Assembly: GCA_902788735.1 (NCBI GenBank)
Contig: CADALJ010000001.1
Span: 4,005-68,004 of the forward strand
DNA length: 64,000 nucleotides
Direction: 5' to 3'
Source of the DNA: an uncultured Erysipelotrichaceae bacterium
GTDB taxonomy: Bacteria; Bacillota_I; Bacilli_A; RF39; UBA660
Below are positions 47,758 through 62,399 of this stretch, piece after piece. The first letter of the stretch is position 1; every line of letters starts with the position of its first letter. Both the position numbers and the translations under genes were made by a program. Below the pieces are notes generated by a model. The model made no database searches, was not told the DNA's origin, and saw only the letters and a list, made by a program, of their open reading frames with translations.

Positions 47758-48109
47758 TGTATTAAAAATAATTGATTGTTAGAGCCTATTTTAGTAAGAC
47801 CTGAACGTAATGACTAGATATGAGATAATATCAGGTCATAGAAGAGTGTATGTGTTAAATAGAATAGGTATTAAAAATTTAAATGTATAATAAAAAAAAT
47901 ATCAAATGATCAAGCAATTATAGAGATGGTAGATTTCAATATTAAAAGAGAACGTATCTTCCAAAAATAAATATGTATCTCAACAATATATTTTAGTTAA
48001 TATAAATATCCAAAAACAGTAAAGAAGAGTATAATGTACACAACGTGGCTACTAGCCTATGTATTTTATGTAATATATAAATCAAAATATATATAAGCTG
48101 GTGGTTTAT

Positions 48110-48379
48110 ATGATAGAATATGCAAAAGAAGGTAAAAATGTAAATGAGTATATGATTCATGATGATGAATATTATTACAAAAGACTGAGAAAAAATATTA
48201 GATGTTATAGAAAAACAAAGCAATTGACACAACAAGAATTGGCGGACATTGCAGAATTAACAAGAGAATACATTTGCGATATAGAAAATGAAAAGCGTAA
48301 TAAACATCCATCTATTGCGGTAATTGGCAGAATAGCAGATGCACTAGAAGTTGATATAATTATGCTATTTAAAGAATAA
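48110..48379 (+). CDS. XRE-family helix-turn-helix transcriptional regulator (89 aa)
   Basis: HTH QLTQQELADIAELTREYICDIENEKRNKHPSIAVIGRIADAL. GGTGG RBS then ATG at 48110. Confidence 0.65.
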   Translation: MIEYAKEGKNVNEYMIHDDEYYYKRLRKNIRCYRKTKQLTQQELADIAELTREYICDIENEKRNKHPSIAVIGRIADALEVDIIMLFKE

Positions 48380-48719
48380 TTAGGTAGTCTTGTAAAAAGA
48401 TGATGAGAAAAGTGGTGAATAATTAAAAAGTACTATAGCATCATATTTGACTCAATAAAATATGCAAAAAAATTGCATATTTTTTTTATGAAAAAAGCAA
48501 ACGTACATATATAGTTTACTTGCCAAAAAATGTCAAAATTAGTCATAAAAATACGGAAAAAGGAAAAAATACTACCATTCGCGGAAAAAGTGTAGAATTT
48601 TACTACTTATATTATATAATATGTCCCCAAAAAAAATTTATATACATTAAAACGACCAAAATAGCCAAAAAATAGAAAGTATATAAATTAGTGTAGGGGG
48701 AAATGAAAATATACATAAT

Positions 48720-49205
48720 TTGTATATTAATAAAGTTATGAAAACCAGAAATAGAATGATTTTTGAATCAATTAATGAAATAGAAGAAGATCCTGATAAG
48801 TTTAATAGCTATTACACAAAATTATATGAAGTATGTAATGATTTACCATACGACTTTAGATCTAGATTAAGATATTTGCGTGAATGTATGGGATATACAC
48901 GTGAAAAATTAGAAGAAAAATCAAATATTAGTGTTCAAACAATAAAACAAATAGAAATAAATTCAAATAGAGGGTACACGGTAAGTACCATTTTAGCATT
49001 ATGCATTGGTATGAACTTACCTCCAGAACTTAGCTTTGAATTGATGAGGAAAAGTGATTATAACATTGAAACCAGTAGTTCAATATGTAATTGTGTGTAT
49101 TGTTATGTATTAAGAAATATGTATGATCTTAGTATAAATGATGTAAATAATTTTTTAAATAATATTGGTATAGAACCTTTAACAGGTGATAATTTAAGGA
49201 AATAA
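48720..49205 (+). CDS. XRE-like HTH domain protein (161 aa)
   Basis: Central HTH-like MGYTREKLEEKSNISVQTIKQIE..VSTILALCIGMNL. Start uncertain (48720 or 48738). Confidence 0.5.
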   Translation: MYINKVMKTRNRMIFESINEIEEDPDKFNSYYTKLYEVCNDLPYDFRSRLRYLRECMGYTREKLEEKSNISVQTIKQIEINSNRGYTVSTILALCIGMNLPPELSFELMRKSDYNIETSSSICNCVYCYVLRNMYDLSINDVNNFLNNIGIEPLTGDNLRK

Positions 49206-49363
49206 CAGTTGTTCCATTTCTATAATTAAAAAAGGTATCTTTGGCGTACTTTTAGTTAGTAATTAACTATGAGAAATTGATTATAGAAATGGAGGTGAAT
49301 CGATATTATTTAAAAAGTTATTTCTTTATGTACATATTAATAATTAATATAAAAGGAAATTAT

Positions 49364-49675
49364 ATGAATTATATTATTAATTACTCAGCATTAATAACAA
49401 TTATATGTACAATTGCAACATCATTGATTGCTTTTCTATCGTATAAAAATAATAATAAGTCCAAAAATAATCAAGATATTACTGAAAGAGTAAAACGAGA
49501 TACTGAAATATCTACAAAATTAGATATGATGATAACGAGTACATCAGAAGTAAAAGTTGAAATGAAAAGTTTAAATAATAAATTTGATGAGATGAGTGAA
49601 CGAATCGCAAAATGCGAGGAAAGCACTAAGCAAGCTCATGATAGAATTGACAAAATAGAGTTCAGATTAAATTAG
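49364..49675 (+). CDS. small membrane protein with C-terminal coiled coil (lysis-cassette accessory, XhlA-like architecture)
   Basis: AAAGGAA RBS then ATG at 49364; one N-terminal TM then a heptad-rich tail. The ORF-track start at 49277 lacks an RBS. Confidence 0.45.
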   Translation: MNYIINYSALITIICTIATSLIAFLSYKNNNKSKNNQDITERVKRDTEISTKLDMMITSTSEVKVEMKSLNNKFDEMSERIAKCEESTKQAHDRIDKIEFRLN

Positions 49676-49686
49676 AGGTGATGATT

Positions 49687-49899
49687 ATGAAAAAATTCAA
49701 AAAGGGATTAATTAAGTTTTTAAAAAAGCCAAAAGTTGAAAGGGCAATAAAGACTTTTATTGAAGCATTTTCATCATATGTTGCCGTTAAGATTGTAACA
49801 GTTGATGTAACAGATAAAACAGCATTATATGGATTAATTGCCGGAGCTATTGGTAGTGCTATTTCAGTAATTCTTAATGTAAGAACTACGGAGAAGTAA
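49687..49899 (+). CDS. holin-like small membrane protein (70 aa)
   Basis: Amphipathic segment plus a C-terminal TM ALYGLIAGAIGSAISVIL; charged ends; immediately upstream of, and overlapping, the peptidoglycan-hydrolase gene. Confidence 0.45.
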   Translation: MKKFKKGLIKFLKKPKVERAIKTFIEAFSSYVAVKIVTVDVTDKTALYGLIAGAIGSAISVILNVRTTEK

Positions 49900-49900
49900 T

Positions 49901-50842
49901 ATGTTTAAGGGTCAAAAATCAATTAAAGATGGTATAGAAAACTTTCTATGCCCATTTACTGATATGTATATTTCACAAGGTTCAAATGGTGCATATTCAC
50001 ATAAGGGAATATTAGCCCATGATGTTAGAGGACATGTTTCAGGTGTAAGATATCCTTATTTCGCCCCATGTACATGTAAATGTATTAGGACTTACCCTGT
50101 TACAGGACAAGTAATGTGGCAATCAACAAATAAAGTTAGATTTGCTAATGGTAGAATTGACTATGCCACTTTTATGACAGCCCATGATGACACTATGGAT
50201 GCTAAAGTTGGAATGATTGTTCCACAAGGAAATCAATTAGGTAATATGGGAAGAAAAGGTTATTCAAATGTAACTGGTATCCATTGCCACATACAAATAA
50301 GTCAGTCTGCTGATACATCATGGTATAAGAATTCTTATGGTAACTATAAATTTAATAATGAATATGAACCTGAAGATTGTTATTTTGTAGACAATACAAA
50401 TATTATATATGCTTGCAATATTACAAATTGGAAAAAAACAGATAAAATTTCAGTAGACGAAAATATGGAGAAAGAAGTTGTAGATCAAATATTACACGTA
50501 GGTAGTAAAGTAAAATTTGATGGAATATTTAAGGTTGATAGTATAAGACTTCCACTTTCTACAAATCATTTTGGTAATACACAGTTGACCGGTGTAATCC
50601 CAGATGATTATAAAAATGGAAGATGTAGAGATTATCATTGGATTCCTTTAGATGATTGGACTGAAGTTGACCAATATGGAAATTCTCAGGAACAAGATCA
50701 AATTGTCTATAGCGGAGTATCATACGTGTTGAATAAAAATATATACACAGTAATTGGGATTGATATTCCTACCGATTCAGCAAAACTACGAATTAATGGT
50801 CATGATGTTTGGGTTTTTTGTACATATTTATATGAGGTATAA
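49901..50842 (+). CDS. M23-family (lysostaphin/LytM-like) peptidoglycan endopeptidase with C-terminal binding domain; candidate endolysin
   Basis: TAHDD..VGMIVPQGNQLGNMGRKGYSNVTGIHCHIQ aligns to the M23 signature GxxVxxGQxIGxxGxTGxSTGPHLHFE. About 150-aa C-terminal extension. Confidence 0.55.
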   Translation: MFKGQKSIKDGIENFLCPFTDMYISQGSNGAYSHKGILAHDVRGHVSGVRYPYFAPCTCKCIRTYPVTGQVMWQSTNKVRFANGRIDYATFMTAHDDTMDAKVGMIVPQGNQLGNMGRKGYSNVTGIHCHIQISQSADTSWYKNSYGNYKFNNEYEPEDCYFVDNTNIIYACNITNWKKTDKISVDENMEKEVVDQILHVGSKVKFDGIFKVDSIRLPLSTNHFGNTQLTGVIPDDYKNGRCRDYHWIPLDDWTEVDQYGNSQEQDQIVYSGVSYVLNKNIYTVIGIDIPTDSAKLRINGHDVWVFCTYLYEV

Positions 50843-50978
50843 AGAATAAAATAATTAATAAATGTACGTAAGAAATAAATAAAAAATTGCACAGCAATAT
50901 AAATTAGTTTAATATTACTAATTCAACAATTTACCCACAATAAAAATATAAAATAAATAAAGAAAGAAGGAATTAAAA

Positions 50979-51584
50979 ATGTATGATTATATAATTGATG
51001 CTTTTACAAGAGATGGAAATAATACAAATCTTGAAGTAGACAATTTAAATGTAGGATGTATTACATCCAAAAATAATAATTTTGATTTAGATAGTAATGG
51101 TAATTTAACAGTTAATTCAATTACTACTAATAGCATTACAGGGCAGGCACTTGCCAATCTGTTATATCCGATTGGTTCGATTTATATGTCTGTTGATTCA
51201 ACTAGCCCAGCAACATTATTTGGAGGAACATGGCAAAGATTTGCAAATGGACGTGTATTAGTTGGAATAGATGAAAACCAAACTGAGTTTAATACAGTAA
51301 ATAAAACAGGTGGAAGTAAAGACATGCAGAGACATACACATACTCAAAGCAGCTGTACAAATCCTGGCGATCACTCGCACAACACATGGAATTATTTCAC
51401 ATTCCATCATTCAAGTGGTGGTGTAACTACTTCATGCACAGGAGAACCATCAGATGGAAGAGGAAATCCTACTCAAGGAGCTGGAGGACACACTCATACT
51501 ATCACGTTGAATGAAACAGGAACTGGTACAAGCGGAAACTTACAACCATATGTATGTGTATACATTTGGCAAAGAGTAAGTTAG
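50979..51584 (+). CDS. phage tail-collar domain protein (tail fibre-like)
   Basis: LYPIGSIYMSVDSTSPATLFGGTWQR is the hallmark of the phage tail-collar domain. Gly/Thr/His-rich C-terminus. Ends 12 nt before the RHS gene. Confidence 0.65.
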   Translation: MYDYIIDAFTRDGNNTNLEVDNLNVGCITSKNNNFDLDSNGNLTVNSITTNSITGQALANLLYPIGSIYMSVDSTSPATLFGGTWQRFANGRVLVGIDENQTEFNTVNKTGGSKDMQRHTHTQSSCTNPGDHSHNTWNYFTFHHSSGGVTTSCTGEPSDGRGNPTQGAGGHTHTITLNETGTGTSGNLQPYVCVYIWQRVS

Positions 51585-51596
51585 GAGGTTTAAATA

Positions 51597-54500
51597 ATGG
51601 ATCGAATAGAATTAATTGATAAAAGAAAACCTCGTGAAAAACACTTTTTACAAAAAGATGGTACGATTCGTGCTGAAATATTCAATGAAGATGTTCATTA
51701 TCTAAAAGATGGAAAATATGAAGAAATTGATAATACATTAATTGAAAAGAAAGGTTCGATAGTAAATAAAAGTAATGATTATAGAGTCGAATTCAAAGAT
51801 AATTCACATGATTCATTAATGAAAATATCAAAAAATGATTTATTTATTGATTTTAAAATTAAAAATAATAAAGGTATAGAATCAAAAGTAGTAGAAAGAA
51901 AAGTGTCAGAAGAAAAGAAAAATGTTATTTTATCTAAATTAGATGATGATGTTTCAATAGAATATCAAGCATTATCTAATAAAGTAAAAGAAACAATAAT
52001 ATTACAAAGCAACAAATATAGCGAGCTTAGTTTTGAATTAAATACAAATTTAAAACTAAAATCTGAGAATGATGAAATATACGCTATTGATGCTGAAAAT
52101 AGAACTATCTTTAAAATTGAAAAACCATTTATGGTAGATGCAAATGGTGATAAGAATAATAGAATCTATTATTCGCTTGCAGAATATGATGATGCATATA
52201 TATTAAAATTAACATTAGACGATGAATGGCTAATGAATCCAGAAAGAAAATATCCAATATATATAGACCCAACAATATCAAATATAAGTAATAATAATAT
52301 AACACTATATGATACATATATATATCCAGGAGATTCACAAGATGATAGAGATAGTAAACCATATATAAAAGCAGGTACTGAAAGAATAAATGGTCAAGAT
52401 AGAGTAAATAGATCTCTAATCAAATTTGACTTACCAGAAATTGGAACAGGTAGTCATATAGTAAATGCAACACTAATACTTGTACCATATTATGAAGCTT
52501 TTCATGAAGAAGAATCTACATTATCGCGTACAGTAGAAGTAAGAAGAATTACAGAAAGTTGGAATCCATCTACTGCAACATGGTCAACTATGAATGATAA
52601 ATATGATTCAAGAGTTGAAAGTATAACTTTCTTTGAGAGATCTCATATAATAAATAATGTGGTTTATTATGGAACGACTTATTTAGATGTCACAAATTTA
52701 GTAAGAAATTGGTATAGTGGAGTGGCAAACCATGGACTAATGATAAAATCTTGCAATGAAGAATATTATGATGACAATTTTCCAATGTTTTTTTCCACTA
52801 ACAATAATGTCACAGGTGATCCAAAACCAATTATTTCAATTTCTTATGAAAATCAAAATGGTCTAGAAGAGTATTATGATTATAAAAGAATTAGCTGCGT
52901 AGACAGTGATACATTTATCAATACTTATAGCGGCAATATGACATCAGTATTTACAGTTGGAAAAACATTAGGACAGAGATTCCCAGCTAAAGCTACACTC
53001 GTATATAATACTAATGATGCTATTTTAAATAATTCAAGTTCATTTGGAAAAGGATTCAAATTAAACTATGAACAAAAAATAATAGAGGAAAATCAAGATT
53101 TATTATCTTTTATTGATGCTGATGGTACAACCCATTATTTTCATAAAGGAGGAAATGGGCTTAATTCAGATAGAATATTTGATAATACCAAGTATTATGA
53201 TGAAGATGGTTTAAATTTAATAATATCCATAGGACAAAATACATGTACAATGGAAGATTTAGATGGAAATCAAAAGACTTTTGAAAAATATAACAATATA
53301 TATTATTTAAAAAGTATAAAAGATATTAATAATAATAGTGTAACTGTTACATTAGATAATAATCAAAGAATAACAAAAATAAAGGATATTAATAATCAAG
53401 AAATAAACATTACATATAATAATTCAAGTGTTGTATTTAGTTGCACTGCTATGACAGTAACGGCATATAAAACTAACAATCTAATAACATCTATTCAAAC
53501 AATTAATGGTACAACAAATATCACTTATAACAACCTTGATTTAATAGAGATTATTGAAGATCCTAGTGGTACAAAACATAAATATGAGTATTATCAAACA
53601 ATACCGCATAGAATTTCTGAAATAACAATGTATGGTATCAATGATGGAATAGGTGACACAAATACATTTGAATATTATAGCAATAGTACATCAGTTACAA
53701 ATGGACAGGGATTAGTGGAAGTAATAACATTTAATGATAGAGGAAATGCTATTGAAAGAAATTATCAAAATAGTATCAATGATTTATCAGGAGCTTATTC
53801 ATCAACATGCAAATATGGTAATGGAGATAAAACAAATAGATTATTATCTAGCAATATTCCAATAAAGTATACAAAAAACTACATAGGAAATAGTAGTTTT
53901 GAAATGGATACAAACCCATTTATAATAGAAAATGGAATAGTTGCTAGTTTTGATACAAATAGTGCACATTCAGGTAATAGAAGTTTAAAATTAGAAACTA
54001 CATATAATAATAAAAAAGCATCCTCTGGATTTGCGCTAACCGGAAATAAACATTATACATTTAGTGGTTATTTTAAAGGAACAGGAACAGCAAGCATAAC
54101 ACTTTATTATATTCAACATGGAACTCAAGAAATAATAAGTAGTACTCAAGATATTGAACTTTCTAGTGATTTTGAAAGAGAAGATGTAACTTTATATTAT
54201 GGCAATGATGCTAACAGTGATTTAAATGTAATAATTGAATTATCAAACGGAACTTTATATGTCGATGATGTTCAATTAGAAGAAGGTGAGGTGGCAAATT
54301 ATTATAATATAATGGATAATGCGGACTTTAGTAATGGACTATCAGATTGGACATTATATGCGGGTAGTCAAATAGATCCACAAGATCCATATGATTATAT
54401 GAGTGTTGTAACTATAAATTCAAATAATGATACAGCACTTAAAATTGAAATGGATCCAGTAGTGCCGACAGCATTAGTAAAAAAATATGATATTAATGGG

Positions 54501-57500
54501 AAAACTGGTGATGTATATACTATATCATTTTGGTATAAAAATGGTAGCGTAACACCATATATGCCAAATGTAGGTAGTGCAGTAAGTATTTTTTACCAAC
54601 CATATAATAGTGATAATGGTCATTGTATAGTTTCAGAAATTATACCAAATACTGGTGATGAAACATGGCATTATTTTATTCATAAAGAAGTAGCAATTGA
54701 AGATTTCAAATCCATAACTATCAACTTCTCACAAACAGGTACAGCAAATGATTTTTATTTAACTAATATAGCTTTTTATAAAGATGTAACAAGAGGAGAA
54801 TTTGACTATGATAGTAATGGAAATTTAACTAGAATTAGTAATCAATCAAATAATACTAGTCAATTAAGTTATAATACTGATAGTCAGTTGAAAGATATAG
54901 TAAGTCCATCTGGACAAAAGGTAAAATATGAGTATGATAAAAATAAAAAGAGTAGATTAATTAGTTCTATATCAGCTGGCGGTATTGTAACTGAAAGCAA
55001 ATATGACAGTAATGGTAATATATGCAATATTAAAATATCAAATAAGACAATTCAAAATATTGATTCATCTGATTTATATACGATAAGAAATAATGGTACA
55101 GATAAGTATATAAAAGCAGAATTAAATGCGGTTTTATTAGAAACTAATGATTGTAGTAACACAAAATGGAAAATTCAAGAACAAAATAATGGTAAATATA
55201 AAATTATTTATAATGCATGTCCACAATATTCTGTATCTTATTTAAATGAAAATATAATTCTTTCTAATGAAAATATCAATAACCTATTTGAATTAGAACA
55301 AAATGATAATGGTAGTTTTCATATAAAATATATAGAAGAGACAGGTGAAGGTACAGCAATTAGATATTTAAAAGCAAATAATCAATTGATTGAAACAACT
55401 TTATATAGTGGAGAATCTTCAGATATTGAATTTTATATTGAAAAAATTCCAGATCAATTTATTGAAACTGATACAGAGTATACAACTGATGGAAAATATG
55501 AAGAAAAAAATATTAATAGTGATTTAACTGAGGAAGAATATGAATTTAATCCAAATACAGGTTTATTAACTAAATTAATCAATGTAAACGGAATAGAAAC
55601 TACATATTCATATAATTTGATGAATAAGATAAGTGGAATTGCATGTCAAAATAGAACAGTATCCTATAACTACAACACATCTGGATTGTTAAGTTCAGTA
55701 GCTGTTGGAAATAAAAATTATAATTTTGAATATGATGAATTCTTAAATAATACAAAAGTTAAAATAAACAATAACACATTAACCCAAAGTACATATTCAA
55801 ATGGAAAACTGACATCTACCACATATTCAAATGGCTCTAGCATAAACTATTATTATGATACATTAGACAGATTAGAACGTATTCAAAAAGACAATAGTGA
55901 AAACTATTACTTTAAATATAATAACAATGGTAATATTGCAAAAATAATTTCAAATAATGAACAAATAAAATGCTATTATGATGCAAGTAATAGAATCATA
56001 AAGTATAAAAACAATGATTTTAAAATAGATTATGATTATGATATAGATGACAGAAATATTTCAAAAAATTATAAATTAGAAAATCAAAGTCACACTAATG
56101 AATTTGAATTTAATAATGATAATTTAACAAAATTGACTGTAGATAATATAGATTTTAATTATGAATATGATAGTTTAGGCAGAATTACAAATAAAAAAAT
56201 CAATAATAATAATTATATGAATTATGAATATCTTTCAAATGGAAAGAGAACTTCTAACGAAATCGTTAAGATGTATTTAAATGGTGATGAGTATGAATAT
56301 GTTTATGATAAATTAGGAAATATCAATGAAGTTCATAAGAATAATATTCTAATAAATAAGTATTATTATGATGATTTTAGTCAGCTTACTATGAGTGAAG
56401 ATTATGTTGAACATAAGAAATATGAATATACTTATGATACTAACAGTAATTTAATTGAAAAAAAGGTAATTAATACATTAAATAACACTGTAATAGAAGA
56501 TATAATGCTTGGTTATAATAATTCAAGTTGGGAAGATCAGTTATCAACATATAATGGGACAACAATCACTTATGATAGTTTGGGAAATATTACAAGTTAT
56601 GGTAATAATGAATTGTTCACTTGGAACAATGGTAGAGAACTTACTCAATATAGTAATACAAATCAAAATATTACTGCTAATTATGCATATGATATGTCTG
56701 GTATAAGATGTTCAAAAAATATAAATAACATTTTAACAACATATTATACAGAAAATGGTAAAGTAATATATGAAAAAAGAAATAACGATATTATATATTA
56801 TTTATATGATATTCAAGGAATAGCAGGATTAATATATAATGGCAATATATATTACTATGAGAAAAATTTATTGGGAGATATTATAGGTATTTTAAATAGC
56901 CAATATCAAAAAATTGTATCATATCAATATGATGATTGGGGAAAAATTCTTTCAATAAAAGATTCAACTGGACAGGATATTATAAATCCAACTAATATAG
57001 GAATAATAAATCCATTTAGATATAGAGGATACTATTACGATAGTGAAACGGGATTATATTATTTGAATAGTAGATATTATAATCCAGAATGGTGTAGATT
57101 TATTTCCGCAGATGCGTTAATTGCTTCAAATCAAGATTTCCCATCATTTAATTTATATGTATATGCAAGTAATAACCCTATTATGAATACTGATATTTCT
57201 GGATATGGAATACTTAGTTCAATATCAAAAACAGTAAAGAAGGTCGTTAAAAAAGTATCAAAGGCAATAGGGTCTGTTGTAAATTCAGTAGTAAATACGT
57301 TTAAAAAAATAGTAAAAGTAAGTACTACCCAAACACAACACGTAGAAAAATCTTCACAAAATTGGGGTGTAGCAATTTATAGCAAGGGTACTATACAATC
57401 TGCAACAATAGAAACAAATCGCAAAGAAAACAGTATAATAGAAGCAAACCATGAAATTGGTGGTGGTGACTCAATTGGTTTCAATAATCAATTATTTGCG

Positions 57501-57794
57501 ACTTCTATAGCAGTAGATACAACAGGAGTAGATTTTTCTGTAAAAGGAAATACAGGATTTATAGCAAATCAAGAAATTATGTTTGGTATATATGGTGGAG
57601 ATGTATATATCCAACAAAACAGTATGGCAGAGGGTTCAGGTGTTAGTACAGGAACATATAAAAGATTAAGTGTAAATGGAATAGTTGCTGTTATTGTTGT
57701 GTCAGTAGCGACAGTAGTATTATGTAATTTATCAACAACGGCAGGAAAAGGAGTCGCAGCACCAATATTTGCTCCAGCCGTTTCACTTGCATAA
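51597..57794 (+). CDS. RHS/YD-repeat polymorphic toxin (2065 aa) with no N-terminal signal peptide and a C-terminal hydrophobic toxin domain
   Basis: N-terminal DNRLRE-like domain. Many YD repeats (YEYDSLGRI, YYYDTLDRL, YTYDTNSNL). RHS core FRYRGYYYDSETGLYYLNSRYYNPEWCRFISADALI..NLYVYASNNP. Internal CBM-like and ricin-B-like inserts. C-terminal about 195 aa is Lys-rich amphipathic, then Gly-rich, then a hydrophobic helix. Strong AGGAGG RBS. Confidence 0.9.
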   Translation: MDRIELIDKRKPREKHFLQKDGTIRAEIFNEDVHYLKDGKYEEIDNTLIEKKGSIVNKSNDYRVEFKDNSHDSLMKISKNDLFIDFKIKNNKGIESKVVERKVSEEKKNVILSKLDDDVSIEYQALSNKVKETIILQSNKYSELSFELNTNLKLKSENDEIYAIDAENRTIFKIEKPFMVDANGDKNNRIYYSLAEYDDAYILKLTLDDEWLMNPERKYPIYIDPTISNISNNNITLYDTYIYPGDSQDDRDSKPYIKAGTERINGQDRVNRSLIKFDLPEIGTGSHIVNATLILVPYYEAFHEEESTLSRTVEVRRITESWNPSTATWSTMNDKYDSRVESITFFERSHIINNVVYYGTTYLDVTNLVRNWYSGVANHGLMIKSCNEEYYDDNFPMFFSTNNNVTGDPKPIISISYENQNGLEEYYDYKRISCVDSDTFINTYSGNMTSVFTVGKTLGQRFPAKATLVYNTNDAILNNSSSFGKGFKLNYEQKIIEENQDLLSFIDADGTTHYFHKGGNGLNSDRIFDNTKYYDEDGLNLIISIGQNTCTMEDLDGNQKTFEKYNNIYYLKSIKDINNNSVTVTLDNNQRITKIKDINNQEINITYNNSSVVFSCTAMTVTAYKTNNLITSIQTINGTTNITYNNLDLIEIIEDPSGTKHKYEYYQTIPHRISEITMYGINDGIGDTNTFEYYSNSTSVTNGQGLVEVITFNDRGNAIERNYQNSINDLSGAYSSTCKYGNGDKTNRLLSSNIPIKYTKNYIGNSSFEMDTNPFIIENGIVASFDTNSAHSGNRSLKLETTYNNKKASSGFALTGNKHYTFSGYFKGTGTASITLYYIQHGTQEIISSTQDIELSSDFEREDVTLYYGNDANSDLNVIIELSNGTLYVDDVQLEEGEVANYYNIMDNADFSNGLSDWTLYAGSQIDPQDPYDYMSVVTINSNNDTALKIEMDPVVPTALVKKYDINGKTGDVYTISFWYKNGSVTPYMPNVGSAVSIFYQPYNSDNGHCIVSEIIPNTGDETWHYFIHKEVAIEDFKSITINFSQTGTANDFYLTNIAFYKDVTRGEFDYDSNGNLTRISNQSNNTSQLSYNTDSQLKDIVSPSGQKVKYEYDKNKKSRLISSISAGGIVTESKYDSNGNICNIKISNKTIQNIDSSDLYTIRNNGTDKYIKAELNAVLLETNDCSNTKWKIQEQNNGKYKIIYNACPQYSVSYLNENIILSNENINNLFELEQNDNGSFHIKYIEETGEGTAIRYLKANNQLIETTLYSGESSDIEFYIEKIPDQFIETDTEYTTDGKYEEKNINSDLTEEEYEFNPNTGLLTKLINVNGIETTYSYNLMNKISGIACQNRTVSYNYNTSGLLSSVAVGNKNYNFEYDEFLNNTKVKINNNTLTQSTYSNGKLTSTTYSNGSSINYYYDTLDRLERIQKDNSENYYFKYNNNGNIAKIISNNEQIKCYYDASNRIIKYKNNDFKIDYDYDIDDRNISKNYKLENQSHTNEFEFNNDNLTKLTVDNIDFNYEYDSLGRITNKKINNNNYMNYEYLSNGKRTSNEIVKMYLNGDEYEYVYDKLGNINEVHKNNILINKYYYDDFSQLTMSEDYVEHKKYEYTYDTNSNLIEKKVINTLNNTVIEDIMLGYNNSSWEDQLSTYNGTTITYDSLGNITSYGNNELFTWNNGRELTQYSNTNQNITANYAYDMSGIRCSKNINNILTTYYTENGKVIYEKRNNDIIYYLYDIQGIAGLIYNGNIYYYEKNLLGDIIGILNSQYQKIVSYQYDDWGKILSIKDSTGQDIINPTNIGIINPFRYRGYYYDSETGLYYLNSRYYNPEWCRFISADALIASNQDFPSFNLYVYASNNPIMNTDISGYGILSSISKTVKKVVKKVSKAIGSVVNSVVNTFKKIVKVSTTQTQHVEKSSQNWGVAIYSKGTIQSATIETNRKENSIIEANHEIGGGDSIGFNNQLFATSIAVDTTGVDFSVKGNTGFIANQEIMFGIYGGDVYIQQNSMAEGSGVSTGTYKRLSVNGIVAVIVVSVATVVLCNLSTTAGKGVAAPIFAPAVSLA

Positions 57795-57803
57795 CAAAAA
57801 AAT

Positions 57804-57831
57804 AAAAAGCACAAAATATTGTGCTTTTTAA
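57804..57831 (+). terminator. intrinsic terminator after the RHS gene
   Basis: Hairpin aaagcacaa-aatat-tgtgcttttt. Confidence 0.6.
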
Positions 57832-57863
57832 TATATATATGATAAAATTAATTTGGTGATAGT

Positions 57864-58547
57864 ATGAAAATTAAAAAAAATATGAATATACTATTTTGGA
57901 TAACATTAGTTTCATTTGTAGGATGGTTTGTATCTTGGGGATATTTAACTAAAGATCTTCCGGTTGAATTAGCATTTCTTCCGCTAGAATGGGCTAATTG
58001 GATATGGATGATAATCCCGATATATACTATATATTATTCATATAAGAATAGAAAAGTAGGTAAAGCTATTAGAAATATAATAGCTGCAGTTATATTGATT
58101 TTGGTATTAATTCCAGGATTAATTCCAGATAATAAAGTAAAATACAATAATATACATAAATATGAAGAAATACTTAATATAAATTTTCCAAAAACTGGAA
58201 TTTTAATAAATGAAATAGGACTAGATATAGATGACAATAAAGACGATATTAGAATAGAATTAGCATATTATAAAAAAAGTATTGACATTAGCAAATTAGA
58301 AAACCAAATAAAAAAGTCAAAACAATGGACTAAAAAAGAAAATGTAGGCAAAAAATTATATAAAATACTTCCAGATATAGTTAGATTTGATGATGAACAA
58401 TATATATTAGTATACAATAATGATACTAAAGAATATAACACACCTTTAGAGGAAAATAAAATATATGACATATATACCGCTATATATTATAAAAAATATA
58501 GAGCAATATATATATATCATTACCAATATAATAATAAAGAAGAATAA
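57864..58547 (+). CDS. multi-pass membrane protein, candidate cognate immunity protein of the RHS C-terminal toxin
   Basis: 3 N-terminal TM segments plus a soluble Lys/Tyr-rich domain, located immediately 3' of the toxin. Confidence 0.45.
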   Translation: MKIKKNMNILFWITLVSFVGWFVSWGYLTKDLPVELAFLPLEWANWIWMIIPIYTIYYSYKNRKVGKAIRNIIAAVILILVLIPGLIPDNKVKYNNIHKYEEILNINFPKTGILINEIGLDIDDNKDDIRIELAYYKKSIDISKLENQIKKSKQWTKKENVGKKLYKILPDIVRFDDEQYILVYNNDTKEYNTPLEENKIYDIYTAIYYKKYRAIYIYHYQYNNKEE

Positions 58548-59432: not shown

Positions 59433-60002
59433 ATGAAAAAAATATTAGGAATAATTAGTATGGCACTAGTTTTAGTATTAGTAACTGGTTGTAGTTTAAT
59501 ACCAGGACAAAAAACAAATGCTAATGGAAATGTATTAGAAAAACCAGCTAAAGGAAATTGTAATGTATTTGAATGTATTAAAAAGATAAATCTTACAGAT
59601 GATTTAGATAAAGTAACAAAAGTTATGGGTTTTGAAGGTAATTTATTAAATGAAGGGTCTACATATAAAACATATAAATGGGTAATTAATCATGATAAAA
59701 ATGAAGCAGTACAAGTAGCATTTAATGCTAATAGTACAGTAATAAGTATTACATTTAGTGATGAAGATATTAAAAATCCTAAAGTAGATTTTTCAAAATA
59801 TGAAGAAATTAAAACTGCATTAAACAATAAAGAAAAATTAACATATAATGATATTAAAACTAAATTTAAAGCTGATGGAACGTTAATTGAAAAATCTACA
59901 TTATCAACTAGATATAGATGGGTTAATGAAAATGGTAGATATATTAATGCTACATTCAGTAATTCTACTGGTGCTTGTACAATGATAATGGGAAGAATTT
60001 AA
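59433..60002 (+). CDS. lipoprotein (paralog A)
   Basis: Lipobox LVTGC. Shares GNCNVFECIKKI..VMGFEG..YKW with the next gene. Confidence 0.6.
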   Translation: MKKILGIISMALVLVLVTGCSLIPGQKTNANGNVLEKPAKGNCNVFECIKKINLTDDLDKVTKVMGFEGNLLNEGSTYKTYKWVINHDKNEAVQVAFNANSTVISITFSDEDIKNPKVDFSKYEEIKTALNNKEKLTYNDIKTKFKADGTLIEKSTLSTRYRWVNENGRYINATFSNSTGACTMIMGRI

Positions 60003-60051: not shown

Positions 60052-60582
60052 GTGAAGTATATGAAAAAAGTAGTAAGTTTATTTTTATTTTTATCAGTTA
60101 TATTATTAATAACTGGATGTAGTACAAAGAAAGAAGAAAAAGAAGAAAAATCAAAAGGAAAATGTAAAATAGAAGAATGTATTAAATTGATAGGGCTAAA
60201 TGATAATTTAGAAAAAGTAAATGAAATAGTAGGTTTTGAAGGAACTAAAGAAGATAATACTTATTCTTGGAAATTAACTAGTAAACAAAAACTAGAGATA
60301 GTGTTTAGTGATACTAATAGTATTAAGATTAAAGTATTAGATGAAGAAATAAAGAATAATAAAACAAACTTTTCTAAATACTCTAAATTAGAAAAAGATT
60401 TAAAAGATGGAAAAGAAATAAAAATAGAGGATCTAAATAAAGCATTTAAATCAAATGGAGTATTAATAGAAAAAACATCTACTGAAGAAATATATAAATG
60501 GGTAGATAAAGAAGATTCTTACCTAGAAGCAACTATAAATGCTACTAATGGTAAATGTTATAAAATAAATGGACTAATATAA
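60052..60582 (+). CDS. lipoprotein (paralog B)
   Basis: Lipobox LITGC. KCKIEECIKLI..IVGFEG..YKW is paralogous to the previous gene. Confidence 0.6.
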   Translation: MKYMKKVVSLFLFLSVILLITGCSTKKEEKEEKSKGKCKIEECIKLIGLNDNLEKVNEIVGFEGTKEDNTYSWKLTSKQKLEIVFSDTNSIKIKVLDEEIKNNKTNFSKYSKLEKDLKDGKEIKIEDLNKAFKSNGVLIEKTSTEEIYKWVDKEDSYLEATINATNGKCYKINGLI

Positions 60583-60645
60583 AAAATAAGATATTGATTA
60601 ATATCTTATTTTTATTTATAATAACTAATTATGGGAGGTTCAGCA

Positions 60646-62399
60646 TGAAAAATAATCAAGTCGCAACAGAAGTTATTAAAATACGTTGGTTAGATGCATA
60701 TATATTTGTATGCCATAATGTAGTAACAGGTAATTATGATGAAGAACAAGGAATATTTACTGATATTTATGGCGAAGAATATTGTAATATGATGTCTGGT
60801 GATGCACTTACCACAGATGCTAAAGTAGTCTATAATATAATGGACATGGATAAATTAAAAAAATTAGATGTTAATAAAAATAAAAAAGTAAATGATATTA
60901 TTAGTGAGTATTATAAAGAAGTAGCAACAAAAGCATATGTTATAGGATATACAGATGAATATACTCCATATGTATATGCAATTAAATTAGATTTTTTAAA
61001 AGAAGAAGCAAATAGAATAGAATCAAATGGTTCAAAAAATGTAATTAATCCAAAATCTACAGAAAAATTAGAACAATTAATATTAGATACAATAGATGGT
61101 AAATATACAAAAGAACAATTAAAAGAAATGATAGAAGTTTTAGAAACTACCAAAGATACCATTGATAATACAATTGGTACAATGGAAACTAAAATAAGTG
61201 CTATAGATAGCAATATGAGTTTTAAAGATTATTTAAATGAACAAATAGAAAAAGAAAAAAATATAACAAAACCAGCAACATCTACAAACACTATTACTGA
61301 TATTGCATTAAAGGTAGCAAATGATCGTAAAAAAGAAGAAGAAAAGAAAAAAAATCCTCTTAAAGATCAAACTATCAAAAGAAAAGAATTAAAATATGAT
61401 ATAGAAGAAATATATAATAAAGTAAAAGAAACATTAATTGCTCAAGATGAACCATTAAAAAAAGTAATTACAGAAATAGTAAGAAAAGACATGGATCCTA
61501 GATTAAAAAGACAAGGTATTTTTATTACAGGTGCAACAGGAACAGGTAAAACAGAAATGATGCGTCAACTTGCTATGCAATTAAATAAAAAACTTATTAT
61601 AGTCGATTCATCTCAATTAACTATTGAAGGATATGTAGGAAAAGATATAGAAAAAGAATTATATGATTTATATGAAGCTTGTAATAAAAATATAGAAAAA
61701 ACAGAAGAAGCGATAGTTTTCTTTGATGAAATAGATAAAAAAGGAACAGAAAAACATGATGATCCAAACGGAAGAGGAGTACTAAACTTATTACTTAAGT
61801 TCATTGAAGGAACAACATATGATGCAGCTCCTAATAATAAATCAACAACTATAGTTCCGATAAATACATCTAATATGACAGTAATTTTTGGAGGGGCATT
61901 TACTGATGTATATAATCATTCTATGACAAGCAATATAGGTTTTTCTACAGAACCACAATCTAATAAGAAATATCATGTACCAGAACTAGAAGATTTTGAA
62001 AAATATGGAATGATGCCAAGAGAATTTTTAGGAAGAGTATTACATGTACCATTAAATCCTTTAAGTTTAAATGATTTAAAAAGAATACTATTAGAATCAA
62101 AAGAATCAGCAATAAAAATTCATGAAAAATTATTTAGAGAGTTAGGAGTACATATAATCTTTACTGATCAATTTATAAATAAAGTAGCAGAAAAAGCATA
62201 TTTAAGTAAAACAGGAGCAAGAGGATTAAATGATACGGTAAATGTAGCGACAAGTGAAGCATATGCTAAAGTATATATGGATTGTTATAAAAACTTAAAT
62301 AGTTATAAGGAAGTATTATTAACAGATAAAACAGTAGAGGATAGTTCTAACTATCAATTAGTAAATAGAAGAATAATTAGAAATAAAAATAAGAAGTAA
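60646..62399 (+). CDS. ClpX-like AAA+ ATPase paralog with novel about-300-aa N-terminal domain (no zinc-binding domain) and a retained IGF-type loop
   Basis: Walker A GATGTGKTE, Walker B VFFDEIDK, sensor/arginine finger KTGARGLN; NIGFSTEP aligns to the ClpX IGF loop GIGFGATV. GGGAGG RBS then ATG at 60646. Confidence 0.7.

Follow-up and report, generated by a model that had tools for sequence, protein, structure and literature searches.

A candidate membrane-directed toxin tail of an RHS protein and its putative immunity protein in an uncultured lineage of gut Bacilli

The stretch analyzed here (the window) comprises 64,000 nucleotides (nt) from an uncultured Erysipelotrichaceae bacterium (assembly GCA_902788735.1, contig CADALJ010000001.1, positions 4,005 to 68,004 of the forward strand). 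Its open reading frame (ORF) 51597-57794 (+) encodes an RHS protein of 2065 amino acids (aa), the C-terminal tail of which, together with the gene for a membrane protein downstream of it (nt 57210-58547), is the subject of this study. An initial annotation, made from the sequence alone, had placed the start of a C-terminal toxin domain at position 57210 and had considered the downstream gene a candidate for immunity. The features of the region are as follows.

51597..57209, + strand: RHS body without signal peptide (family searches and hydrophilic N-terminus MDRIELIDKRKPREKH...)
Residues 239-415 of the RHS protein: DNRLRE/CBM96-like domain (CBM96 region match, 3e-8)
Residues 441-515: DUF6531 plug (family search)
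Residues 1778-1869: Rhs-associated core, with a degenerate aspartyl-protease site containing D1839 and D1866
57210..57311, + strand: tail part 1, cationic amphipathic helix, residues about 1872-1905 (hydrophobic moment, charge, helix in both AlphaFold2 models)
57312..57677, + strand: tail part 2, acidic and Gly/Ser/Thr/Asn-rich, predicted to be beta-rich (alignments A1/A2; hairpins in a low-confidence AlphaFold2 model)
57678..57794, + strand: tail part 3, apolar Val-rich putative transmembrane (TM) segment (residues about 2028-2048; Kyte-Doolittle), followed by an Ala/Pro-rich end and the stop codon
57803-57830: perfect hairpin with a 12-bp stem, AAAAAGCACAAAATATTGTGCTTTTT, in the 69-nt gap between the RHS stop codon and the next gene
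57864-58547, + strand: candidate immunity protein, 227 aa, with two to three N-terminal membrane segments and a conserved ∼140-aa Tyr/Lys-rich C-terminal domain

The RHS body contains a YD/RHS repeat shell, which was recognized by family models (Pfam RHS_repeat, 2.8e-19; TIGR01643, 2.5e-17) and matched the solved Rhs shells 8h8a and 7q97. The core ends with the motif NNPIMNTDISGYG at residues 1859-1871 (nt 57171-57209), and nt 57210 corresponds to residue 1872 (ILSSISK...), which leaves a C-terminal tail of 194 aa. Matches to the RHS core, be it in phage records or in solved Rhs, Tc, and teneurin structures in the PDB, all end at residues 1869-1870, and the last 194 residues therefore constitute a separate C-terminal domain. 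Both the start of the tail and its length, originally given as about 195 aa, are borne out by these data. The same is true for the degeneracy of the aspartyl-protease site; both aspartates are kept, but the usual Pro and Leu of PxxxxDPxGL are missing, DISGY being present instead of DPxGL. The N-terminus is hydrophilic in all three full-length alleles (see below), with no hydrophobic segment ahead of residue 2028, and neither a PAAR nor an LXG domain was found in Pfam or NCBIfam scans. As read from hydrophobicity and the family scans, the protein carries none of the N-terminal trafficking domains considered (Sec signal, PAAR/VgrG, LXG/WXG). Interpreting insertions in the RHS protein as CBM or ricin lectins was backed only for the DNRLRE/CBM96 region, as the RicinB match (E = 0.016) stayed below threshold; residues 751-1070 gave no family match.

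The division of the tail into a Lys-rich amphipathic stretch, Gly-rich segments, and a terminal hydrophobic stretch, as initially proposed, was confirmed for all three parts. The hydrophobic moment of the helix is 0.72, compared with 0.44 ± 0.06 in 500 shuffles (maximum 0.76), and the net charge over the first 40 tail residues is +9; this character is kept in all homologs (moment 0.61-0.72, charge +6 to +9). Part 2 harbors most of the invariant tail positions (K59, G60, S75, N80, S99, G106, D108, S110, N114, Y133, E141, Y150, and R152). Within the 2065 aa, only the apolar stretch of part 3 reaches a Kyte-Doolittle mean of 1.6 over 19 residues (peak 2.5). It is kept in all alleles, with an approximate insertion energy of 0.4 kcal/mol in the window and 1.8-1.9 kcal/mol elsewhere. 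Because all three parts recur in every homolog despite only 33-45% identity between allele types, they do not reflect chance composition.

Neither the tail nor the 227-aa protein matched a family in Pfam, NCBIfam, PADLOC, or the PDB sequences; in Pfam (E ≤ 10), the tail produced no match better than E = 0.017. Compositional matches of the Lys-rich helix at E ≤ 10 (JMY, DUF643, T7 protein 7.3, and heymonin) were rejected as homology. Profile searches of Pfam, NCBIfam, and PDB sequences revealed no relation of the tail to nucleases, deaminases, or ADP-ribosyltransferases, which agrees with the earlier failure to see a nuclease or deaminase motif, and the absence of any match in Pfam, NCBIfam, PADLOC, or PDB upholds its designation as an uncharacterized family of Rhs C-terminal domains. 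A word-indexed search with the tail alone returned nothing, and a four-sequence profile recovered only the fragments P0005, P0006, and P0008. Of the matches from an exhaustive phmmer search with the tail against 1.84 billion representative proteins, only P0005 and P0006 were genuine; P0007 was discarded as a low-complexity, eukaryote-like false positive. Viral and genome contigs contained no match to the tail profile, and viral contigs none to the immunity profile. Relatives were found mainly by searching with the 227-aa protein and then reading the matched contigs. The best “phage” match to the RHS protein, MT835902 (H1), was uninformative, being a GC-rich contig whose RHS protein starts with a signal peptide, keeps a normal DPSGE site, and terminates in an HNH-like tail. 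A reading as anti-phage defense was likewise dismissed, as the RHS, immunity, lysin, and fiber proteins gave no hits in PADLOC.

In this way, two further full-length alleles were obtained, one on an ENA scaffold (L001; RHS protein of 2062 aa) and one on a metagenome contig (L089; 2048 aa). The gene order holin, endolysin, Gp10_C, RHS, and 227-aa homolog is common to the window, L001, and L089, the contig of the latter beginning inside the holin gene, so that only its 3′ end and what follows are visible. The tails of these three alleles are homologous but diverge fast (34-45% identity, vs. 62-72% for the core). Right at the boundary of core and tail, the window and L001 go from 75% identity to 27-36%. 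Elsewhere, the same two loci are 98% identical in a TM and coiled-coil protein, 97% in the holin-like protein, 87% in the endolysin-like hydrolase, 59-81% per 100-aa block in the RHS body, and 56% in the 227-aa protein. The ratio of nonsynonymous to synonymous substitution rates (dN/dS) for this pair, which is approximate because dS is near saturation, was 0.56 for the tail, 0.28 for the immunity gene, 0.19 for the RHS body, and 0.09 for the endolysin-like gene. A tail or tail remnant is present at five loci in addition to the window (L001, L005, L006, L007, and L089), and in each of the five the 227-aa homolog follows immediately 3′, which makes six loci with the window. Identities between the four allele types change broadly in parallel for the tail (33-67%) and the partner (39-69%), and the two most similar tails belong to the same loci as the two most similar partners.

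In the 227-aa protein, residues 9-25 and 71-87 are clearly membrane-competent, whereas the aromatic segment between them (about 45-60, WIWMIIPIYTIYYSY) scores as marginal on each of the two scales applied. The only argument for three spans is the strongly basic character that the N-terminus shares with the 60-71 loop. Of the three TM segments first assigned to this protein, two are thus clear and one is marginal, so that it is better described as having two to three. By the positive-inside rule, its C-terminal domain of ∼140 aa probably faces outward. In the gap upstream of the gene, an AT-rich −10-like stretch and a GGTGA ribosome-binding site, both recognized at the pattern level only, come after the hairpin, which could act as an attenuator or terminator and would then precede a separate, constitutive promoter for immunity.

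The association of tail and partner is also recorded in three independent deletions (L005, L006, and L007), which lost the RHS body and kept the partner gene. The DNA of L005 is 94-97% identical to the window but lacks window positions 48023-57304 (a 9.3-kb deletion). Its junction lies in an AAAAA(C/T)AGTAAA microhomology (window 48011-48023 and 57304-57316 vs. L005 923-935); one deletion microhomology falls within the sequence coding for the amphipathic helix. L005 retains the last 98 tail codons and an intact gene for a partner of 228 aa, the dN/dS of which is 0.17, compared with 0.42 for the tail remnant. In L006 and L007, the 3′ end of RHS is joined in frame to a ParB_N fragment at two different breakpoints (L006 1604-1712; L007 1687-2115), the point of fusion to the RHS end being INPFRYR in the former and PDAMIASNQDF in the latter. 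L006 retains a complete tail ORF (P0005) without the shell; in L007 the tail is broken by a stop codon and resumes as a separate ORF of 164 aa. Intact partners come after the tails in both, and the L007 pair is 98-99% identical to the pair of the full-length allele L089. The partner also occurs without any tail. It stands alone directly after RNase J in L013, and in L004 (981-2069) a fused homolog of 362 aa (76% identity), with an extra C-terminal extension of ∼135 aa, lies in an unrelated neighborhood next to genes for an MmeI-type restriction-modification system and a NERD-domain protein, with no RHS gene. Among 80 species-level genomes of the lineage, none contained the RHS gene and only L013 the partner. 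The candidacy of the downstream membrane gene as immunity partner is strengthened accordingly: it is always adjacent to the tail, diverges along with it, is kept under purifying selection after toxin loss, and occurs as an orphan. Judged from these sequences, toxin loss with retention of the partner is the pattern expected of a polymorphic toxin and a specific immunity protein worth keeping alone, and the family of tails is very small, with members only at a single chromosomal hotspot in a single uncultured lineage of Bacilli.

The window itself is chromosome and not phage, as it encodes HisRS, AspRS, PolA, pyruvate kinase, FtsA, penicillin-binding proteins, MraY, SpoIIP, and RNase J. The latter places it in an uncultured, low-GC lineage of gut Bacilli known only from metagenome-assembled genomes (MAGs) of ruminants, rabbits, and humans. 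In one related MAG (L010; RNase J 93% identical), RNase J is directly followed by the lipoprotein and AAA-ATPase genes that occupy 59.4-62.4 kb of the window. Because of this empty site, the region from about 47.65 to 59.4 kb represents an inserted island (∼11.7 kb), which contains, upstream of the RHS gene, the following features.

47758..47961, + strand: pseudogene remnant of a ParB_N-like gene, marking the island's left edge between it and RNase J (tblastn with ParB_N of L007, 46-70% identity)
48101..48379, + strand: Xre/CI-type helix-turn-helix (HTH) regulator, 92 aa (Pfam HTH_19, 1.4e-8; HTH_3, 8.5e-8; PHROG transcriptional repressor, 1.4e-11)
48720..49205, + strand: second HTH regulator, 161 aa (phrog_4031, 3e-20; weaker PHROG transcriptional regulator/repressor matches, 1.2e-6 and 4.4e-5)
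49364..49675, + strand: small protein with N-terminal TM segment and coiled coil, first gene of a lysis-type cassette (phrog_1863, 3e-19; weak holin-like and spanin-like matches)
49678..49899, + strand: holin-like membrane protein, 73 aa (phrog_443 “holin”, E = 3.9e-4, weak)
49901..50842, + strand: endolysin-like peptidoglycan hydrolase, 313 aa (phrog_11037, 3.7e-27; phrog_9066 “endolysin”, 2.3e-15)
50979..51584, + strand: tail-fiber or baseplate-tip-like protein, 201 aa (Pfam Gp10_C, 9e-29; PHROG tail, baseplate, and fiber families)

The region of the ParB_N remnant is also the left breakpoint region of the deletions in L005-L007. The second HTH regulator is 76% identical in L001, where the product has a weak match to Pfam HTH_3. 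The genes of the lysis-type cassette are tightly packed, the holin-like gene beginning 2 bases past the preceding stop codon and ending 1 base ahead of the next start codon. The endolysin-like protein consists of an M23-like N-terminal part (Peptidase_M23, 1.3e-3, below the cut-off) and a C-terminal part resembling wall-binding domains (C-terminus of ScrM, 2.5e-6). The Gp10_C-like gene stops 12 nt ahead of the RHS start codon; its product is 56% identical in L001 and 50% in L089, that is, as divergent between alleles as the immunity protein. Such divergence beside holin and lysin proteins that are 87-98% identical suggests diversifying target recognition. At their ends (L001 11596-14185; L089 10672-12372), the islands of L001 and L089 contain a large serine recombinase (33% identical to each other), which indicates that the island is or was mobile. 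A late-activator-like gene (phrog_248) is also present in L001. The window allele lacks both the serine recombinase and the late-activator-like gene and is therefore probably immobilized. No recombinase remnant was found in the window. Genes for capsid, portal, terminase, tape measure, or tube were found in none of the three full alleles (islands of ∼12-13 kb in the window and L001, 13.7 kb of L089).

Beyond the island, two tandem paralogous lipoproteins (59433-60002 and 60052-60582; 33% identical) and, after them, a ClpX/AAA_2-like ATPase that carries a long extension at its N-terminus and matched IetA-like PADLOC models only weakly (60594-62399) are chromosomal and also present at the empty site of L010. 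The NCBIfam match of a 132-aa ORF to CcrC is a coiled-coil artifact. Three upstream ORFs of ∼586 aa with PHROG matches were ruled out as paralogs because they share no mutual BLASTP match; by our reading of their N-termini, two of them resemble housekeeping repair proteins, UvrC-like and MutL-like.

Taking these data together, we lean toward reading nt 57210-58547 as the coding region of a polymorphic toxin domain, located at the C-terminus of a WapA/Rhs-type protein, and of its cognate immunity protein; the toxin would permeabilize membranes and be released by lysis. The parts of this reading are not equally firm. That the tail and the 227-aa gene are a toxin-immunity pair is highly probable. 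The membrane or envelope is the somewhat favored site of action, given a conserved cationic amphipathic helix, a conserved apolar segment, no enzyme signature, and a membrane-embedded partner; such a target fits a toxin that acts on Gram-positive cells without an injection machine. Pore formation or depolarization specifically, the latter already raised in the initial annotation, is put forward only tentatively. Release that depends on lysis, which is suggested by the lack of an export signal, the tightly packed lysis genes, the fiber-like gene 12 nt away, and Xre-type regulators conserved among the three alleles, comes close to an even call, albeit on the doubtful side.

Mechanistically, the tail of ∼20 kDa would be carried within the RHS shell and possibly be cut at the degenerate aspartyl-protease site, which keeps both aspartates. 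Release would occur by lysis of a fraction of the producer cells, in a colicin-like manner or in that of the type X secretion system (T10SS), and the fiber-like protein and the lectin-like domains of the RHS protein could supply target recognition. The tail would then act from outside on the cytoplasmic membrane of a Gram-positive target, the cationic amphipathic helix binding the anionic surface and the Val-rich apolar segment inserting, whereas the conserved beta-rich middle part might provide oligomerization or target recognition, leading to permeabilization or depolarization. The immunity protein would sit in the membrane, its conserved C-terminal domain probably directed outward, and block the toxin there. 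A more far-reaching and doubtful proposal is that the whole island serves Gram-positive gut bacteria as a self-contained “RHS bacteriocin” module of phage origin, combining regulators, lysis, a 235-kDa cocoon, fiber docking, a membrane-permeabilizing tail, and retained immunity. Here, the Xre-type regulators would switch on the holin-endolysin cassette in a few cells and thereby free the signal-less RHS cocoon of 235 kDa; the diversifying fiber-like protein and the lectin-like domains would dock the cocoon onto related cells, where the tail would be delivered into the exposed cytoplasmic membrane; and the co-evolving membrane immunity protein would be widely kept as an orphan by neighbors.

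Several observations weigh against the favored interpretation. The protease motif lacks the usual Pro and Leu, which makes tail release by cleavage no more than a possibility. There is a single apolar segment, which is only borderline for membrane insertion in three alleles (1.8-1.9 kcal/mol on an approximate scale) and, being Val-rich, could instead form a beta strand buried in the fold. The invariant D, E, R, Y, S, and N residues of the middle region would also suit a small enzyme or binding domain, and AlphaFold2 models of the tail, from the single sequence as well as from the four-sequence alignment, reached a mean confidence (pLDDT) of only 35-36. With its second span marginal, the 227-aa protein could have its C-terminal domain in the cytoplasm. 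The match underlying the holin assignment is weak (E = 3.9e-4), and that to M23 lies below the Pfam cut-off; moreover, the lysis genes could be mere leftovers of a decayed prophage, although they are intact and 87-98% conserved between alleles.

Three other explanations have to be considered, two of which share the toxin function. In one of these, the toxin-immunity pair is maintained, but the tail would be an enzyme or binder that is anchored to, or associated with, the membrane and works at the envelope's outer face (for example, on lipid II or on precursors of teichoic acid or peptidoglycan). The helix and the apolar segment would then serve as mere tethers, and the extracytoplasmic domain of the immunity protein would sequester the tail. 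In its favor, the best-conserved positions (D108, E141, R152, Y133, Y150, and several Ser/Asn) are found in the beta-rich middle and not in the helix or apolar segment, and the immunity protein has a large conserved soluble domain, a trait shared by membrane-anchored immunity proteins against envelope-acting toxins such as TelC/TipC. However, no enzyme family matched in Pfam, NCBIfam, or PDB sequences, no His or Cys is conserved, and the region in question has only about 120 residues of low complexity (G/S/T/N-rich); we consider this reading unlikely. Quite improbable is that the tail is a cytoplasm-acting toxin of novel fold, with the helix and apolar segment as its module for entry or translocation and a membrane protein that blocks entry. 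Many tails of Rhs and contact-dependent inhibition (CDI) proteins do combine an N-terminal entry part with a C-terminal toxic part, and the complete tail ORF without shell in L006 (P0005) would be expected if the pair doubled as an addiction module. Yet here the apolar segment lies at the very C-terminal end, in the place expected for the catalytic part; no signature of a nuclease, deaminase, or ADP-ribosyltransferase was found; and immunity to such toxins is normally small and soluble, whereas it is membrane-embedded in every allele of the present family.

Very improbable, finally, is that no antibacterial toxin is encoded and that the locus is the end of a decaying prophage. The RHS protein would then be a structural or receptor-binding tail protein with a C-terminal anchor or penetration device, and the 227-aa protein a prophage membrane protein unrelated to it, with a role, for example, in superinfection exclusion. 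Phage-type genes do flank RHS, a large serine recombinase is present in L001 and L089 and a late-activator-like gene in L001, and in an Anaeroplasmataceae phage (see below) the gene for an RHS protein with a hydrophobic tail likewise precedes one for a membrane protein. Capsid, portal, terminase, tape-measure, and tube genes were nevertheless found in none of the three full alleles (for L089, on the 13.7 kb available, which begin in the holin gene); a structural anchor is not expected to outpace the rest of the protein together with its neighbor, nor is this neighbor expected to persist alone after three independent deletions and as orphans; and superinfection exclusion of a phage that is absent here is unsupported.

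The membrane-active toxin with lysis-dependent release proposed here has counterparts in several known systems. Pore-forming colicins (colicin A/Cai, E1/Cei) are released by lysis and countered by a polytopic membrane immunity protein that acts within the membrane. Lysis release, an immunity gene that probably has its own promoter, and a membrane immunity protein are also proposed here; however, there is no homology, and colicins are plasmid-borne, imported via Tol/Ton, and built around a ten-helix pore domain without an RHS shell. Closer in architecture is Tse5, a type VI secretion system (T6SS) Rhs effector of Pseudomonas aeruginosa, the pore-forming C-terminal domain of which is encapsulated in the Rhs cage (PMC10684867). 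Tse5/Tsi5 and the present pair have in common the RHS shell, an Asp-dependent cleavage site (putative and degenerate in the present protein), a non-enzymatic, membrane-directed tail of ∼150-200 residues (with tail action proposed in the present case), and an adjacent cognate immunity gene (PMC10684867). Moreover, the Tse5 toxin acts preferentially from outside the cytoplasmic membrane, as proposed for the tail here (PMC10684867). Tse5 differs in its PAAR-type N-terminus and its use of the Gram-negative T6SS, whereas in the window no secretion domain was found, the host is Gram-positive, and a lysis cassette lies upstream. The Tse5 tail is predicted to be helical, unlike the combination of one helix, a beta-rich region, and one apolar segment seen here, and the tails share no sequence similarity. 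In line with this, no Tse5 chain was matched by the tail-family profile in a search of all PDB sequences, and Tse5 aligns only via shell and core.

With the WapA-type Rhs toxins (WapA of Bacillus subtilis; WapA-CT1 of Streptococcus suis, PMC12704120), the protein shares a DNRLRE-type surface domain, DUF6531, the YD shell, a variable tail, and a downstream immunity gene, and orphan tail and immunity remnants occur in both cases. Apart from the missing trafficking domain and the degenerate protease motif, it shows the features that define Rhs/WapA polymorphic toxins. WapA, however, has a Sec signal peptide and a wall-binding or sortase-linked N-terminus, both of which are missing here, and DPxGL in place of the DISGY protease motif. 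The tails known from WapA act as nucleases or in the periplasm and are paired with soluble immunity proteins, in contrast to the membrane partner in the window. In classical Rhs loci, tail cassettes are unrelated to one another, whereas the tails of the present family are diverged homologs. As for release, the Tc toxin of Yersinia entomophaga, whose TcC part is an RHS cocoon, is freed by a T10SS lysis cassette (PMC10847048), and large toxins of Clostridioides difficile depend on holin and endolysin for release (TcdE/TcdL; PMC6200909, PMC12485765). The present locus resembles these in that a very large toxin without export signal is encoded beside phage-derived holin and endolysin genes and dedicated regulators; holin and endolysin genes adjoin the signal-less cargo, with the holin match being weak. 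The T10SS and TcdE systems target animal cells and have no immunity gene, whereas here the presumed target is a related bacterium and the operon includes a tail-fiber-like gene.

Non-catalytic, membrane-spanning domains at the end of RHS proteins have been predicted before, namely, the RHS/PVC-associated pore-forming domain Tox-WTIP (Zhang et al, 2012; PMC3482391). Tox-WTIP differs in having two membrane helices and the motifs RxxR and Wx[ST]IP and in its occurrence in proteobacteria; the tail in the window has one apolar segment, a single Trp (NWGVA), and no RxxR. The complete Anaeroplasmataceae phage NatCom_34063 (PV036447.1) encodes an RHS protein of 1836 aa (L008 8002-14178). Its tail of ∼200 aa is an unrelated Gly/Ala-rich, glycine-zipper-like hydrophobic domain and is followed by a 214-aa protein with N-terminal membrane segments. 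By analogy, RHS tails directed at membranes may be more widespread on the phage-derived elements of low-GC gut bacteria. In the limited literature searched, no Gram-positive bacterium was described in which an RHS toxin is coupled to a lysis cassette.

As judged by sequence comparison, the tail family and the immunity family are new within the known Rhs/WapA kind of polymorphic toxins, and so is the delivery context. Rhs toxins are known to travel by T6SS, by the type VII secretion system, or by Sec. With regard to the export of very large Rhs/WapA proteins from Gram-positive cells, a signal-less RHS protein encoded together with a lysis cassette and a fiber-like gene offers a concrete alternative route which, if true, would amount to secretion-system-independent delivery of Rhs toxins between Gram-positive bacteria. 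Among the 1.84 billion representative proteins, the tail and its partner have no relatives outside this one locus type; if membrane-active, they would constitute a new toxin-immunity pair acting on Gram-positive membranes. The independent loss of the toxin with retention of immunity would provide a clean natural case of immunity “cheating” in an uncultured gut lineage.

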